Shown here: positions 7,811 through 52,135 of the stretch, piece after piece
How positions within the stretch are numbered: position 1 is the stretch's first letter
How the letters are laid out: every line of letters begins with the position of its first letter
NCBI GenBank assembly: GCA_951406725.2
Contig: OX597814.1
Span: forward strand, 144,398,001 to 144,462,000
Direction of reading: 5' to 3'
Length of the DNA stretch: 64,000 bases
From: Octopus vulgaris
Taxonomy: Eukaryota
The notes under the pieces: model-generated
Databases searched by the model: none
Told to the model about the DNA's origin: nothing
Seen by the model: the letters and a program-made list of their open reading frames with translations, nothing else
Position numbers and translations under genes: made by a program

Positions 7811-8315
7811 ATCGAATAATAGCATACGATGGATAATTGTCAGTTCATTAAAACTGTTACGTGACTTTTTAATAGAAGCATGAGAACCTTACATCATTAT
7901 AACAGACCGTAATCATCAGATGAGAAGTAATTTTACAAAACAATAGAACTTTAATAATGATGTAATGCTCTCATTCTTCTACTAAACAGTTACATAAGAA
8001 ACAGCTTTAATGAGCAGACAATTATCCATCGTATGTCATTATTCATTTGATTACAATACACCAAGGGAATCTACGATTTGACGGACACCCTAGAGTATAC
8101 CAATAACGTACTATTCAAAGTAATGCATGGTTTGGACAAGCCCCTTAGGCGCTAAATACTCATAGGGTTGGGTTTTTTTCTGTGTACACAACCGAAATAT
8201 CCTATCTGATATTTCGACTCTTACCAACCACAGACCGGAACCACAGACATTTCTCGACCCTACCTGGTGCATACCTTTTCAAATACCTGATTCTATCTGA
8301 ATCTTGATCTTACTT
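7811..8315 (+). mobile_element. Fold-back PLE-end insertion in (TA)n with split hammerhead
   Basis: 7812-7900 is an imperfect inverted copy of 7953-8045; about 265 bp tail. Hammerhead 5' half at 7913-7924 (-), 3' half at 7998-8014 (+). Confidence 0.7.
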
Positions 8316-8325
8316 TATATATATA

Positions 8326-8624
8326 CTAGCAGTATCGCCCGGCGTTGCTCGGGTTTGTAAGGGAAATAGCTATATAAGCATTTTTAGAGAGTTACTTCCC
8401 TTATATAGTAGCAAAAAAATTCATTAAAAATGGGAAAAAATGATGGTAATTTTTTTTTTAAATCGTAGACTCATTGTAGACGCGCGCTAATACCCAGAAG
8501 GGCTCGATATGAATCCCGACTATAAGATACCCGCTTTTGGTTAAACTGCACCGCAAAATGTGGGAGTAGTTAGGAATCTAAATCGTAGGAGACAGACACA
8601 CAACTTCACTTTTATATATAAAGA
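8326..8624 (-). mobile_element. Non-autonomous Helitron (~300 bp)
   Basis: Minus strand starts TCTTTATATATAAAAG, ends with hairpin CCCGAGCAACGCCGGG then CTAG; inserted between A and T. Confidence 0.88.
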
Positions 8625-10146
8625 TATATATATATATATATATATATACATACATACATACATACATACATACATACATACATACATACACGCACACACA
8701 CACACACACACACACACACACACACACACACACACACACACACACACACACACACACACATATATATATATATATATATATATAACTATATATTATTTAA
8801 ACTGACACTCCGAAATCTTTATATCGAGGACTAAGTCCGTGCGTTAAAGAATAGGAGGGGGTCTATAAAAGGAATCTGGCTGAGCAGATATGGAGATAAT
8901 GACGTAAATAAATAGATAAAACCGCTTAGGATAGGCATATAATACATACATGTACACATGTAAATAGAGAGAAACAAAGACTGGAAATATTCATACGACG
9001 AACATTCATATATAAATATACAGAACAGATTTACACAGAGAAAAAAGACACAAAAACTGAGTAGAGATATATGGATTAGATACAAATCTCTTCACCCTTA
9101 AGATGGAGGCTGGATTTCCCGTGATGTTTAGATGCATCCACAACCGGCAGCATATTCTTCACTTTTTGTGATCTACATCTGCCAACACAATAATCATTAT
9201 CAGAAACTCCAGGAATGCACTGAAATATACTACTTAGTAACACTATGACCTATACTTGTAAATGTTACATTAAATATCTATTATATATACTCCAAACGTT
9301 ATGGTTAATATTTGACATGCTTAGCACGATCTTCGCTTGAGAAAGGAGTTCGTTTCATTGGTTTACAAAAAGGCAATACGTCGTTTCGTCGCGTATTACG
9401 AAAACCATAAAGTTCATAAAAGATAACGAAAAGAGCCACATACACTTTTACTTTTTTATTTTCTCTCTCCTTTATTTACAGTATTGTTTTCTTTACAATA
9501 TTGTCTCCAAACAGGTGGCCGGTCGAAATAAACTCCATTCCATTGTCTTGCTTTATCCTTTTGGTTCTGTTACGTTATTTGCTGTTGTCTTTTTTCCCTC
9601 GCTTTTCATTTATCACTTTGTTCAAAGCTTAAGTAGCCGTTCTCAACTTATTGTTGACCTTCAGTATAAAACTCTTCTATAAATAAATATTCTTCCGCTC
9701 TCTCCCTCCCATCTCTCTATTTACCTACCTACCTATCTATCTGTCTATCTACCTATCTACCTATCTATCTGTCAATTTATCTATCTATATGTGTATGCAT
9801 TTATATATATATATATATATATATATATATATATATATATATATATATATATATATATATATATATATATATATATATATAGTAAATGTTTTTATCTTCA
9901 TTTCACTTAATTTATCAAGCTTCTGTGTTCCTAGCACATATTTCGCCTTAATGTACTGATATATGGAAAATATATGGCTTGTGTTAGTAATACCAGCGAT
10001 TATAATTATTTTTATTTTATCGCAATTTGATTTGTTTACATATATATATATATATATATATATATATATATATATATATATATATATATATATACAGAAA
10101 CAAACAAACATATATATGTATACACATTCAAACATATATATATATA

Positions 10147-12740
10147 TCTATATATATAAAGCAGAGTGTGCGTGAGTGTGTGTGTGTGTGCGTGTGCGTG
10201 TGGTGCGTATATTTCTAATGGGTTCGAAAACTGAGTTGCCGATTTTGATGTATGAGGTATCAAAAGTATGGTTTTTGCACAGCAATTCGTTTTATTCTAA
10301 AAATAACCTCGAAAACGAGTTCGGGTCGCTCAATTTTGATGTCATTTTCTGGCAATATTTGAATTTGCTTCTAATCTACGTTGCCAATTGTAATGTTTTT
10401 GATGTCAAAGAATGCAGCAATGTACAAGGAGCGTTATGAGTGCATTTGTGATGCAGAAAATCCTATTTGTCAACTGAAAGTAACAAAAAAACATGCTTTT
10501 TTGGCACATTTTCCGTACCACCAACTTCCGCTTTTTTTTCCAAAATTTCTTCGGATTCTGGTGTTTTCTACATAGGAGAATAGAATCCCCCCCCAAAAAA
10601 AAAATTTTAATTTCCCCTTCTCCACCCCAATTTCCTAATTTTTAACTTTCGAATTTTTTTTAAATCCATGTAGAAAAATACAGAGATTACAAATTTGGGA
10701 AATTTTTTGTCTTTTAAATTTTGATTTTTCTTAAAGGAATACTCAATGCCCTTTCCCCCCCTCGCCCTCCCATCACCCTTCCTCCCCCCGCTTTCGAAAA
10801 GTCAAAATCTCCGAATGTTTCACTTTCGTCTGATGTTTCACGCATGCGTAAAATTCTACTAAAAGAACATATATAAAAAATATCAGATCACCACCACAAA
10901 ACCTGACATGCTAGAAACAACAGCTAAACAACATTATTTCTGGAAAAACTTCCCTGCTTTCAAAGATGCTAAACGTGAAACAAAAGCTTTTTGAATTTGG
11001 GGATGTGATGGGTGGAGGTGGGGGAATGAATTTGAGTGTTTCTTTTAAAAAAATTCTTAAAGGTCCGTAATCTCTGAATTTTTCTACGTGGTTTAAAGAA
11101 AAAGAAAAATTTCGAAAAAAGTTAGAAATTTTAAAAATTAGGATAAGGAGGGGAGAATTAAAACTTTGAAAACGTGTTTTTTGAGCAAAACCCTAATCTC
11201 CTATATCGAAAACATAAGAACCCGAAGAAATTTTGGGAAAAAAAAAGTGGTGTGCAAATGTCACCTCTGACATGCTACAAACAACAGCTAAACGACAAGG
11301 TTTCTGAAAAGACTTCCTTTTAAGTTTATATCGAAGATCAGGTTTTTAAATACGCTCATCACAGACATGAATTGCAAAATAGAAAAGATCGGCGGAGTTC
11401 TGATCGAAGCACGTACTAAAACCCCTCATAACTTTTTTATTTGTAAGAATTTTCACAAAAGTTTTTGATTTTGTCTTCTGCATAATAGAATTAATACGAT
11501 TATCCAATAACAAATTTGTTTTCAAATATCCCCCCCCCCCCCATCTATGATAATTCCAAAACTTTCCGCTGTTTTTCGATTTTTTTATTTATTTTTAAAA
11601 TACGGTTTTAAAATATGGACAGTCCGACTCTGCCATTCGTTTCCCTTTATAATTTCCAAATAATTTTTAAATACTTCGAAATCAAAATTGTAGGTGTTTG
11701 TGTCAGAGAAAATCATTTACTAACAGGAAATTATGTTATTAAAATAAATTATCTCTAAGGGATAATTTATATTGTTGCAAGAAAAACATTTACTAACAGA
11801 GAATTATGTTATGAAAATAAATTATCTGTAACATACCTTTAAATTATTGCGGATAAAGTATTAAAACTCGAGAACTTTCCCACGAAGTGTATAATCAAAT
11901 TTCAATTTGGAGGTGATCTTCTCGCTAGGGGTCACTTTTATTTTCCAAAAAAAAAAAAAACAGGATTCTGTTTTGTTAGAAATAAAGAGAGAGTGCGTAT
12001 TGTGTCATTCTTCCAATTTTCCCGGCGAATGAAATCCTGCATACTTGGAATATATGACAACAAGGCAAAGAAGGGTCTCATCGAAAACGAGAAAGAAGGG
12101 TTACCTGCAACTTGTTTCTCATCGAAAACCAGAAAAACTGGAAGCGGTAATAATTTAAAGGTATTTTAGAATTTATTTTCCGTTAGTAAATGTTTTTTCT
12201 CTTACACAAACACATAAGACTCGATAGTAGAAACCATAATACTTTTGAACATGGCCTTTTCATTCGGGAAGCTAATGTATATGTGTGTTCCTCATAGTTA
12301 TCAACAAATATCATGAGGCGGGTAAGAACTATTTCAGCTTCTATATTACCCAATTTGTAGCCATGACACTTAGTTGCCAATATTGCTGTGTGAGATATCA
12401 AAAGATTGGGCAATCTTTCGGCTGCTATCGTAGAGTAATTTTTTGGCACAGCAACATTATTTTACTACAAAATTTAACACCAAAATGAGGTTGGGTTGCA
12501 CAATTTTGAGGTCATTTTGGGGACAATGTTAGAATTTCCTTCTAATCTAAGCTGCCATTGTACATGTGTTAGTGTCAAAAATGTCAGTATCGTTCATCAG
12601 AAAGTGACCAAAATACGTTTATAAAGAAGAGTTGTTTGCTTCATACTCCTCATGTGCCGATTCAGCCCATAAGAAAGGAGCAAATAATACAATGTGGCTG
12701 TAGGTCGCAACACCCGGGCAAAACCAGGGTGCATGACTAG
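10147..12740 (+). mobile_element. Non-autonomous Helitron (~2.6 kb)
   Basis: 5' TCTATATATATAAAGC + (GT)n, 3' hairpin CACCCGGGCAAAACCAGGGTG then CTAG|T; no RepHel ORF; internal direct and inverted repeats. Confidence 0.8.
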
Positions 12741-51025: not shown

Positions 51026-51041
51026 CATTCTGTGTAAATCA

Positions 51042-51312
51042 AGGCGGCGAGCTGGCAGAAACGTTAGCACGCCAGGCGAAATGCGTAGCCGTATTTCGTC
51101 TGCCACTACGTCCTGAGTTCAAATTCCGCCGAGGTCGACTTTGCTTTTCATCCTTTCGGGGTCAATAAATTAAGTACCAGTTACGCACTGAGGTCGATGT
51201 AATCGTCTTAGTCCGTTTGTCTGTCCTTGTTTGTTCCCTATGTGTTTAGCCCCTTGTGGGCAGTAAAGAAATAGGTAGTTTGTCTGTTTTTACGTTCTGA
51301 GTTCAAATTCTC
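51042..51312 (+). mobile_element. SINE family B with start of a second unit
   Basis: Match to 50321 copy. Confidence 0.92.
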
Positions 51313-51975
51313 GTCAGCTATTAATGGCAATGTATATATCCTTCCCGAGAGTCAAATTGATACACCTGCTTGTTGTTTCCTCACCTGTCTTCGTCTTTCT
51401 GTCTGTCTGTCTGTCTGTCTGTCTGTCTGTCTGTCTCTGTGTGTGTGTGTGTGTGTGTGTGTGTGTGTGTGTGTGTTTTACAAACTGCTGATAGCATTTT
51501 TCGATCACAACTCCAAGAGGCGCCGAGATAACATTTGAACTGAAAACGTATGAAGCCTGAACAGCTACCGCTTAAACAATTCTGCCAGTCTTTCACTTTG
51601 GTTTGGTACACTTTCTCGATCCCTAAAATAATGAAAAGCAAAGTTGAATCCTGCGAGATTGAAACCCGGAACGCAGAACCGGAACAAAAGCTGTGAAGCG
51701 TCTTATCAAGTACTTTAATGATTTTGATCGTTCGCCTACACACACGCTCACACATATTCTAATTGCGTTCCATATTCGAAATAAATATTGATCAATCATA
51801 AACCGCAAACGAATAAAAGAGAGAAATATTGATAGTGACTTCGAAGTTATTATCAACGTTAACCACTTAAAAATTAAATATGTACTGTATATTGAGCAGT
51901 CTTTCATTTTGATGTTAAATTCTTTTTATGTATAACCTGTATGTATGTATGTATGTATATATATATGTATGTATA

Positions 51976-52135
51976 GCAGAGTAAGCACATAAATACGAAA
52001 CAAGGTCGAAAAAATAGTACTTGAATACCAGAGGTAGAGTAATATGCTTTATTAAAAAGCATTTCCGATAAAGGGGAAAGTGAAACTCTGAGTAACAGTT
52101 TTTGTGATATTTTTGCTGCTTTTTAATAAACTATA
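51976..52135. mobile_element. Short fold-back insertion with hammerhead 3' half
   Basis: TTTATTAAAAAGCA (~52048-61) / TGCTTTTTAATAAA (~52117-30); GAAA-CTCTGAG-TA at 52082-94; microsatellite flanks. Confidence 0.55.

Follow-up and report, generated by a model that had tools for sequence, protein, structure and literature searches.

Penelope-like elements (PLEs) leave inverted, tailed insertions, and how they make them is acknowledged as an open question in the paper on the Hydra clade (PMC8557442). A Hydra family of octopus is already described, namely Hydra-1_Obim of Octopus bimaculoides (Craig et al. 2021, PMC8557442). As given in that paper, such elements have a single ORF with a reverse transcriptase (RT) plus a GIY-YIG endonuclease (EN) at the C-terminus, a DKT motif, a CxCX5C linker, CxxC and CxH at the end, a hammerhead in the terminal repeat, (TA)n targets, an inverted 5′-truncated copy and a tail. 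These features recur among eight fold-back modules, E1 to E8, in a 64,000-nucleotide stretch of Octopus vulgaris DNA (the window), the linker in E2, E4 and E8. Compared by eye with the printed Hydra-1_Obim protein, the E4 RT agrees at about 101 of 158 positions. The modules had originally been read as a multi-family non-coding system; in layout they are no new system: inverted copies, tails, hammerheads and a bias to (TA)n have already been published for PLEs. On the other hand, the Hydra paper reports few, short families (<3 kb) and tails of 30–40 bp (PMC8557442), whereas at least five families with units of 2.9 to over 4.7 kb, long 3′ UTRs and tails of about 62–255 nt occur here; also unlike its description, E3 is devoid of the CxCX5C linker and one E3 end exists in over 1,100 exact copies. 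Size serves to describe the clade, not to diagnose it.

A purified PLE protein cleaves both strands, extends them and starts at two internal sites which delimit the tail (Frangieh 2024, PMC11167929); these in vitro two-start data come from a Poseidon element, not from E1–E8. The protein is a predicted dimer, and hammerhead cleavage is not needed (PMC11167929). This element, PAc of Anolis, is likened to the modules in its two tail-delimiting start sites, in the cutting and extension of both strands (as proposed below), in its AT-rich targets and in its dispensable hammerhead. However, it belongs to another clade, and its start sites, located within the ORF, reportedly have no homology to the target (PMC11167929), whereas the long end of E3 is found about 48 nt ahead of the start codon and the element ends overlap the TA flank by 1–4 nt. 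The passages cited on PAc do not deal with how the two ends pair when insertions are inverted.

Animal non-LTR retrozymes, for which an origin from PLE terminal repeats has been proposed (Cervera and de la Pena 2020, PMC7229834; Li et al. 2026, 10.64898/2026.07.22.740005), have mussel units of 350–390 bp, comparable to the 352-bp non-coding tandem unit of E6 with its type I hammerhead. The likeness is one of sequence. E6 differs in its CCGA variant core and in its dispersed copies, which bear PLE short and long ends and fold-backs, and E5 differs in its 775-bp unit without a recognisable complete hammerhead. Truncated PLEs with minimal hammerheads (Cervera and de la Pena 2014, PMC4209133) and rotifer Penelopes (Arkhipova et al. 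2013, PMC3846280) are similar in their opposite-strand hammerhead pairs 100–700 bp apart, inverted pLTRs without tail, head-to-head junctions and N-rich inserts in the ORF. They come from other hosts and clades, and the passages cited give no end-pairing counts.

Eight fold-back modules of separate families

Arms were detected by aligning each element locally to its reverse complement, and 30 first-order Markov shuffles per element (5 for E2) gave null maxima of 20–30. All eight predicted fold-backs are real: seven score far above chance (Table 1), and for E8, marginal when taken alone, 9 of 11 fold-backs of the family end 64–66 nt from the 3′ end. Simple repeats border all modules, the tail end of E7 adjoining (ATT)n, not (TA)n. 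Beyond these simple repeats, no sequence is common to E1–E8. Every module represents its own family, candidate copies of which number in the hundreds to thousands; this agrees with the many unrelated, abundant families of the original prediction (783–2843 candidates per family). Across families, the tail measures about 42–255 nt.

Table 1. Fold-back modules and hammerheads of the window, with arms (positions, identity, alignment score).
Feature	Position	Strand	Arms	Identity	Score	Description
E1	7811..8315	+	7814-7900 / 7954-8044	75/91	103	old Hydra-type family, 3′ UTR end; head-to-head insertion; tail ~265 nt
E2	23541..24735	+	23541-23593 / 24498-24552	52/55	94	young Hydra-type family; inverted arm, then direct copy to ~24730; tail ~176 nt
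E3	24751..25187	-	24901-24951 (direct) / 25137-25187 (inverted)	51/51	102	very young Hydra-type family; tail 24751-24900
E4	26766..27112	-	26835-26960 / 26986-27112	122/127	227	Hydra-type family; tail ~62 nt from 26766
E5	28617..28867	+	28617-28703 / 28736-28821	85/87	162	end of 775-bp non-coding tandem unit; tail ~40 nt
E6	31121..31313	-	31166-31236 / 31243-31313	68/71	127	end of 352-bp non-coding tandem unit, retrozyme-like; tail 31121-31162
E7	38016..38163	-	38089-38122 / 38130-38163	33/34	63	probably old Hydra 3′ UTR; tail ~64-75 nt
E8	51976..52135	-	52048-52061 / 52117-52130	14/14	28 (null maximum 25)	Hydra-type family; tail ~66 nt
E1 hammerhead, decayed	7919-7913	-				half core
E2 type I hammerhead	24250..24362	+				canonical core, long stem II, palindromic stem III, short stem I; predicted cut after 24358
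E3 type I hammerhead	24967..25048	-				canonical core; in 30/30 sampled copies, 219 nt from long end
E8 hammerhead, decayed and cut-off	52065-52095					within inverted copy

Coding partners and clade

The modules are almost certainly head-to-head, 5′-truncated PLE insertions in simple repeats. To judge from their sequence, five families (E1–E4 and E8) are the 3′ ends of elements encoding RT and C-terminal GIY-YIG endonuclease with Hydra-clade motifs, and E7 is probably the 3′ end of a coding Hydra-type element as well. Extension towards autonomous PLEs, suggested originally, reached RT/endonuclease sequence upstream of all five; this bears out the predicted Penelope-like origin and contradicts the description of the modules as non-coding, since these five, and probably E7, are ends left by truncation of coding elements.

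An intact ORF of 899 aa is present in E3 (locus L241), within a tandem of 3625-bp units. Its protein alignment matches a Pfam-confirmed RT + GIY-YIG element across both domains (probability 97%, E 6e-11), and telomerase RTs are the best matches to its predicted fold. In Pfam, the E2 and E3 proteins went unrecognised, and a PDB sequence search yielded an E-value of only 0.11. For E2 (>4.7 kb), an RT+EN ORF was found in L252, with EN present in 6/6 extended loci; E4 (unit of 2942 bp) has RT and EN in pieces. A sense-oriented endonuclease lies upstream of E1 in 22 of 30 loci, 17 of which end at the same offset. Upstream of E8, an endonuclease was found in 5/30 loci, contiguous in L437, the coding sequence being in pieces; for E7, one decayed endonuclease (27%, E 2e-6) appeared in one of seven extended loci. 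Rejected as partners were the L226 endonuclease (for E8) and the L112/L253 PLE fragment (for E1), both neighbouring insertions, as well as the RT after E7 in L362, which belongs to an E8 insertion. Protein likeness among the coding families, at least five in number, is only about 40%.

Placement in the Hydra clade was made from motifs, the printed Hydra reference being compared by eye. DKT stands in place of DKG: E3 reads SDKT, as does, by eye, the ORF after the E1 tail in L255. At the N-terminal RWK position, read in E3 only, E3 has RWL, the W being invariant in 24 aligned relatives. The endonucleases of E2 and E3 show no CCHH motif in the alignment and carry CxxC and CxH near the end. The CxCX5C linker before the endonuclease reads CNCRNKNKC in E2 and CSCRNKKLC in E4, and is also found in E8 and the decayed E7 candidate. 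It is present in 48 of 52 library relatives with a C-terminal part, the other four having longer-spaced forms. In E3 one cysteine is left in 13/13 readings, some of which are the same place read twice, and this region is disordered in the predicted model.

These partners, with C-terminal endonuclease, DKT and CxCX5C, speak against the Naiad/Neptune RT proposed originally: Naiad traits are absent, as the endonuclease is C-terminal and hammerheads are present, and so are the Neptune traits, i.e., DKG motif, CX2-5CxxC linker and CCHH endonuclease. A DKG-type element with a Neptune-like linker (CX2-5CxxC) does exist in the genome (L256); no sequence link to any of the eight modules was found.

E5 and E6 are, by sequence, the only non-coding units among the eight and form retrozyme-like tandem units. 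The longest open frame of the E6 unit, nine of which stand in L263, is 81 aa, and no PLE protein match was found in it. Neither unit is similar to the 3′ region of any coding family. E5 and E6 are likely copied by Penelope-type enzymes. The two units, together with the short, ORF-less copies that prevail in every family, the Naiad relics published for octopus and the DKG-type element, would suit an independent system of non-coding hairpin ribozymes, all of its families non-autonomous and moved in trans by a Naiad/Neptune RT. We consider this very improbable: five families run upstream into RT/endonuclease sequence with Hydra motifs, which refutes the Naiad/Neptune reading for E1–E4 and E8; Naiads carry the endonuclease at the N-terminus, are devoid of canonical hammerheads and, as described, have long been inactive in cephalopods; and E5 and E6 have no sequence link to the DKG-type element.

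Two fixed ends and their pairing

Every family has two fixed 3′ ends, a short and a long one, and the gap between them is the tail; the fixed arm start and tail end expected for each family are thereby confirmed. The short end lies at 147–157 nt in 14/14 fold-backs of E3, at 64–66 nt in 16/21 of E7, at 167–173 nt in 19 of 20 visible cases of E2, at 60–62 nt in 10 of 13 visible cases of E4 and at unit position 305–310 in 12/14 of E6. Most tallies cover the 30 best matches out of 783–2843 candidates, obtained with tail-bearing queries, and consequently favor young copies with the long end. Counting E3 loci along C1, up to 177.8 Mb, avoids this bias. Among the 84 loci of this census (exact matches only), 37 are fold-backs, pairing long with short in 36 cases, short with short once and long with long never; 38 one-sided loci have the long and nine the short end, one short call being a known misclassification. 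Since short ends occur alone, they are independent termini.

AT microsatellites break easily and pose difficulties for assembly, and hairpins might have formed after insertion, by foldback repair at AT-rich repeats, or during assembly from chimeric reads. This is extremely improbable, as in dozens of independent loci the outer arm ends at a single position specific to its family, and older copies show divergence between their two arms (12% in E1, 4% in E7), which an assembly copy would not show.

Inner ends vary, and the arms mostly join with a few overlapping or added bases. In 14 of 52 junctions both arms are cut within 15 nt of each other (permutation mean 3.3, p 5e-5); this class might be inflated by shared truncation hot spots, even though permutation was confined to each family. 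The long-end arm is longer in 27/52 junctions, and the short-end arm reaches further 5′ in 11/52, by up to 2.2 kb. Arms of E2 diverge by 0.17% within a locus compared to 0.69% across loci; a within-locus similarity clearly above the cross-locus value is seen only in E2 and E5, and E7 shows no excess (4.3 vs 4.2%). New here are the very regular long+short pairing, the matched inner ends, the tail range and the absence from E3 of the zinc-finger linker to which (TA)n targeting has been ascribed.

Proposed mechanism

The regular long+short pairing makes it likely that the enzyme starts at two fixed points at once, and the surplus of arms with matched inner ends suggests one RNA molecule as the frequent template of both. 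We propose, with somewhat better than even confidence, two-start priming at two fixed RNA sites, with one cDNA from each side of the cut. The GIY-YIG endonuclease would cut both strands of the self-complementary (TA)n. Reverse transcription would be primed from one 3′ end at the long site and from the other at the short site; the two cDNAs would run toward the RNA 5′ end, stop early and be linked to one another by end joining. As an overall account, PLE identity plus two-start mechanism is very probably the best explanation.

Snap-back, in which a long-end-primed cDNA folds back and serves as its own template for copying toward the short end, as in the self-priming proposal for rotifer Penelope, predicts the near-equal arms and the longer long-end arms of the two larger sets of junctions above. 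Some junctions are small palindromes, and head-to-head palindromes have been read as self-priming (Arkhipova 2013, PMC3846280). But copying of a long-end cDNA cannot yield the 11 junctions whose short-end arm lies further 5′, and short ends are present without any fold-back. As a general explanation snap-back is therefore unlikely, although it may account for part of the matched-end class.

Returning to two-start priming, a broader joint reading is offered tentatively. Hydra-type enzymes might copy a single RNA from two fixed sites onto both ends of one (TA)n double-strand cut, always long+short, so that fold-backs would be the normal integration product; the same machinery would spread retrozymes; and E3 would do so without a zinc-finger linker, so that targeting would reside in the endonuclease or in RNA–DNA pairing. 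With an intact E3 protein, a known target and two known start sites, the two-start model is directly testable, and E3 is a natural test of whether the linker finger directs (TA)n targeting. Further, young families with over a thousand near-identical ends constitute a clean genomic record of PLE insertion.

Hammerheads

The five modules with hammerhead motifs originally reported are reached only when partial motifs are counted, as a complete canonical core is present in two of eight window copies (E2 and E3). In the E4 copy, each arm holds a complete variant core, CCGAAGA (starts 26925 minus and 27021 plus), the hammerheads of E1 and E8 are decayed or cut off, E5 has a half core only (CUGAAGA at 28710, minus) and no hammerhead fold, and a relaxed core search found none in the E6 and E7 copies. 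A strict hammerhead script matched 0/8 modules; counts rely on relaxed versions. An Rfam scan was discarded as a test: the 150 matches listed of 273 were microRNA and similar models on microsatellites, all below gathering score.

Across sampled copies, the canonical hammerhead occurs in 30/30 of E2, as in E3, and hammerheads with mixed cores in 13/60 (E1), 16/60 (E7) and 17/60 (E8) loci; in longer E7 copies a canonical hammerhead lies further upstream. The CCGA core of the E6 unit, cut off in the window copy, was found in 9/30 loci, many copies being too short to hold it. In E5, CUGAAGA is kept in 48/60 loci and followed by GAAU, with stems I and II absent; a hammerhead is doubtful here. Single-strand folding supported the E2 stem only (z −4.5; others −1.3 to +1.4). 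Because the E6 and E7 window copies fold back without a hammerhead, we conclude that it is a passenger of the terminal repeat and dispensable for fold-back.

Targets and abundance

Microsatellite targeting, as predicted, is evident in the 3′ flank, which is periodic in 27–29 of 30 loci for E2–E4 against a background of 15%; fewer such flanks are found in old families (E1 15/30, E5 12/30). Of 1121 exact E3 ends, 762 are followed by the one TA pattern tested and 26 read through.

The original estimate of one module per 8 kb is local and exceeds the genome average about threefold. A first density detector was rejected, being swamped by degenerate TA/CA repeats and SINE pairs. The second, run without shuffle control on 40 stretches at round coordinates (400 kb in total), gave 29 raw matches, of which 12 were kept and 17 dropped for an abundant repeat arm, a span over 1.5 kb or an arm under 25 bp; two dropped matches of one family are probably genuine. 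This corresponds to about 1 per 33 kb, compared with 1 per 11 kb in the window by the same detector. The ends described here escape Pfam and resemble hairpin RNAs or MITEs in annotation. Extrapolated with wide error from these 12 matches, roughly 85,000 modules are expected in 2.8 Gb; if true, hairpins on the order of 10^5 would form a large unannotated class of the genome.

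Fold-back insertions and hammerheads in the window

The genome comprises 2.8 Gb in 227 contigs, and the window is rich in microsatellites. All eight inverted pairs described in the original prediction, with a fold-back and a tail set between microsatellites, were found there (E1 to E8, numbered by position, each name also denoting the repeat family). When each element was compared with its own reverse complement, seven pairs reached arm scores of 63–227 versus shuffled maxima of 20–30; E8 (28 versus 25) is marginal alone and is supported through its family. Simple repeats are the sole sequence that the eight elements have in common. 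Among the window copies, E2 and E3 contain an entire canonical hammerhead and E4 an entire one built on a CCGA core; the motif has decayed in E1 and E8, E5 shows only a half core, and none was found in E6 and E7.

Family size, fixed ends and flanks

From the 783–2843 first-look candidates that each query returned, 40 were taken for scoring, and the sequences of 30 were fetched. The best 40 matches of E3 were completely identical over 320 bp, and an exact 25-mer from its end occurs 1121 times; the E1 family is old, at approximately 80–88% identity. Two fixed ends were recognized in every family, a long (outer 3′) end and a short end upstream, and their separation constitutes the tail (approx. 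255 nt and scattered in E1, approx. 176 nt in E2, 149 nt in E3, 62 nt in E4 and approx. 40 nt in E5; 42 nt in E6, 64 nt in E7 and 66 nt in E8). Against a background of 15%, a periodic base run lies 3′ of the long end in 27 (E2), 29 (E3) and 28 (E4) of 30 loci, in 21–22 of 30 for E6 to E8, and in 15 and 12 of 30 for E1 and E5, respectively. In the E7 family, long ends mostly run on into (ATT)n and short ends adjoin (TA)n; since the two flanks differ, the (ATT)n may be element-templated or grown by slippage. Adjacent insertions of unlike families are common among the fetched loci, e.g., E7/E8 in L362 or E4/E6 in L246.

Pairing of ends and fold-back junctions

The E3 census, based on the exact matches listed (contig OX597814.1, up to 177.8 Mb), yielded at least 84 loci, namely 37 fold-backs, 38 one-sided long ends and nine one-sided short ends. 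Among these listed fold-backs, 36 combine a long with a short end and one combines two short ends; pairs of long ends did not occur. The same rule is followed by 12 of 14 E6 fold-backs, with one long-plus-long exception. In the accessible part of Frangieh et al. (2024; PMC11167929), the purified protein of a Poseidon element is reported to cut both DNA strands and to extend them, starting at two sites that delimit the tail. In the mechanism we propose for the octopus families, (TA)n would be cut and both ends would prime, one per start site; both cDNAs would terminate early and then be joined head to head.

Arm lengths were compared in 52 distinct junctions of E2 to E4, after removal of one duplicate. 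Both arms are cut at most 15 nt apart in 14 of them (3.3 expected, p = 5e-5), a matched class which would also be accounted for if the inverted arm were a fold-back copy of one cDNA (snap-back). The long-end arm is longer in 27 junctions and the short-end arm in 11, but snap-back cannot give the latter, and lone short ends are inexplicable by it; we consider this alternative less likely than the joining of two cDNAs. Junction bases are mostly 1–12 shared or none, with short additions in a few cases. Only E2 and E5 clearly show variants common to both arms; thus, the sequences suggest at most that both arms were copied from one RNA.

Coding partners and clade assignment

Coding partners were sought by extending family copies upstream. 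E3 contains an intact 899-aa ORF within a 3625-bp tandem; E2 encodes RT and endonuclease followed by a 2.5-kb 3′ UTR, with arms of 2.96 kb at 99.5% in one locus; and E4 has RT and endonuclease upstream. An upstream endonuclease was present in 22 of 30 E1 loci and in 5 of 30 E8 loci (contiguous in L437), and a decayed one in one of seven extended E7 loci. No Pfam match was obtained with the E3 protein, whose library search gave 8473 relatives at E ≤ 0.001; its profile matches a Pfam-confirmed RT + GIY-YIG element, and telomerase RT is nearest to its predicted fold. The available text of Craig et al. (2021; PMC8557442) defines the signature of Hydra, a clade of Penelope-like elements (PLEs) with RT and C-terminal GIY-YIG, by DKT, CxCX5C, CxxC/CxH and a missing CCHH. 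Among the octopus partners, DKT was read in E3 and in the ORF that follows the E1 tail in L255, CxCX5C in E2, E4, E8 and the decayed E7 candidate but not in E3, and CxxC/CxH with a missing CCHH in E2 and E3. Hydra-1_Obim, listed in the supplement of that paper, is recorded there as hammerhead-bearing and as preferring (TA)n. The long protein inserts of E2 and E3 (see table), N-rich in E2, resemble the N-rich inserts described for rotifer Penelopes (PMC3846280, in part).

E3 retains one of four linker cysteines, and the linker stretch is predicted to be disordered. Nevertheless, its ends adjoin TA in 29 of 30 sampled cases and in at least 762 of the 1121 exact ends, although the accessible text of Craig et al. 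(PMC8557442) ties the linker finger to (TA)n targeting. Possibly, E3 is moved in trans by a finger-bearing family such as E2.

Non-coding units

E6 is a closed 352-bp unit, with nine tandem units at L263, and E5 is a closed unit of 775 bp, for which no contiguous ORF was detected in 30 loci and no PLE protein match was obtained. The insertions had been predicted to be non-coding, which fits E5 and E6 but not E1 to E4 and E8, and probably not E7. The E4, E6 and E8 families have a hammerhead variant in common (C for U at core position 4, U directly before GAAA). This shared variant hints that the E6 unit may have arisen from a Hydra terminal repeat.

Abundance and relation to known elements

Applying one detector and filter, without shuffle control, 6 of 7 hits were retained in the window (approx. 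one per 11 kb) and 12 of 29 in 40 other 10-kb stretches (approx. one per 33 kb); 6 of the 8 named window modules were recovered. The proposed lack of annotation is only partly true, since the O. vulgaris repeat annotation of 2026 already holds 31 recently active Penelope-like families, though its main text does not mention hammerheads (PMC13282606). As far as the accessible texts go, the inverted copy, the tail, the hammerhead and the bias towards microsatellites have all been described before as PLE traits (PMC8557442, PMC3846280), and retrozymes have likewise been published together with their origin from PLEs (PMC7229834). Neither a count of end pairing nor a linker-less Hydra was found in the literature covered, mainly the main texts of open-access papers. 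The window modules are real and belong to a known type, to which they add members with a useful mechanistic footprint.

Further PLE pieces and repeats

The inverted SINE-like pairs represent a separate origin for long inverted repeats in the window.

Positions of coding regions, further PLE pieces and other repeats (L, fetched loci)
Feature	Location	Strand	Remarks
Decayed Hydra-type RT fragment	window 16314-17276	+	39% to E3, E 7e-52; microsatellites on both sides; missing from the original prediction
Hydra-type 3′ end	window 54065-53189	-	endonuclease C-terminus, 3′ UTR, hammerhead-like motif at 53261; fold-back not seen
Old AT-rich E7 relative	window 41500-42350	+	decayed long-stem hammerhead at 42064
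Short Hydra-type thumb/linker fragment	window 1205-1008	-	E 1e-11
E2 and E3, tail to tail	window 24735-24751		one short TA run holds both
E2	L252:5546-3339	-	two long low-complexity protein inserts around thumb and linker
E3	L241:7360-4664	-	two long low-complexity protein inserts around thumb and linker
DKG-type RT + GIY-YIG ORF	L256:6045-3997	-	683 aa; Neptune-like by motif
Head-to-head fold-back of a further PLE	L242:2920-4860
Short near-perfect hairpins	window 50976-51025; 29526-29572		without flanking microsatellite
ORF fragments	window 6108-6830, 38904-39233, 39944-40258, 29870-30733, 47805-48317, 60095-61537		presumably Tc1/mariner transposase- and non-LTR RT-like
Abundant SINE-like repeats	window 27503-28062 / 28867-29365; 48694-51210		in inverted pairs
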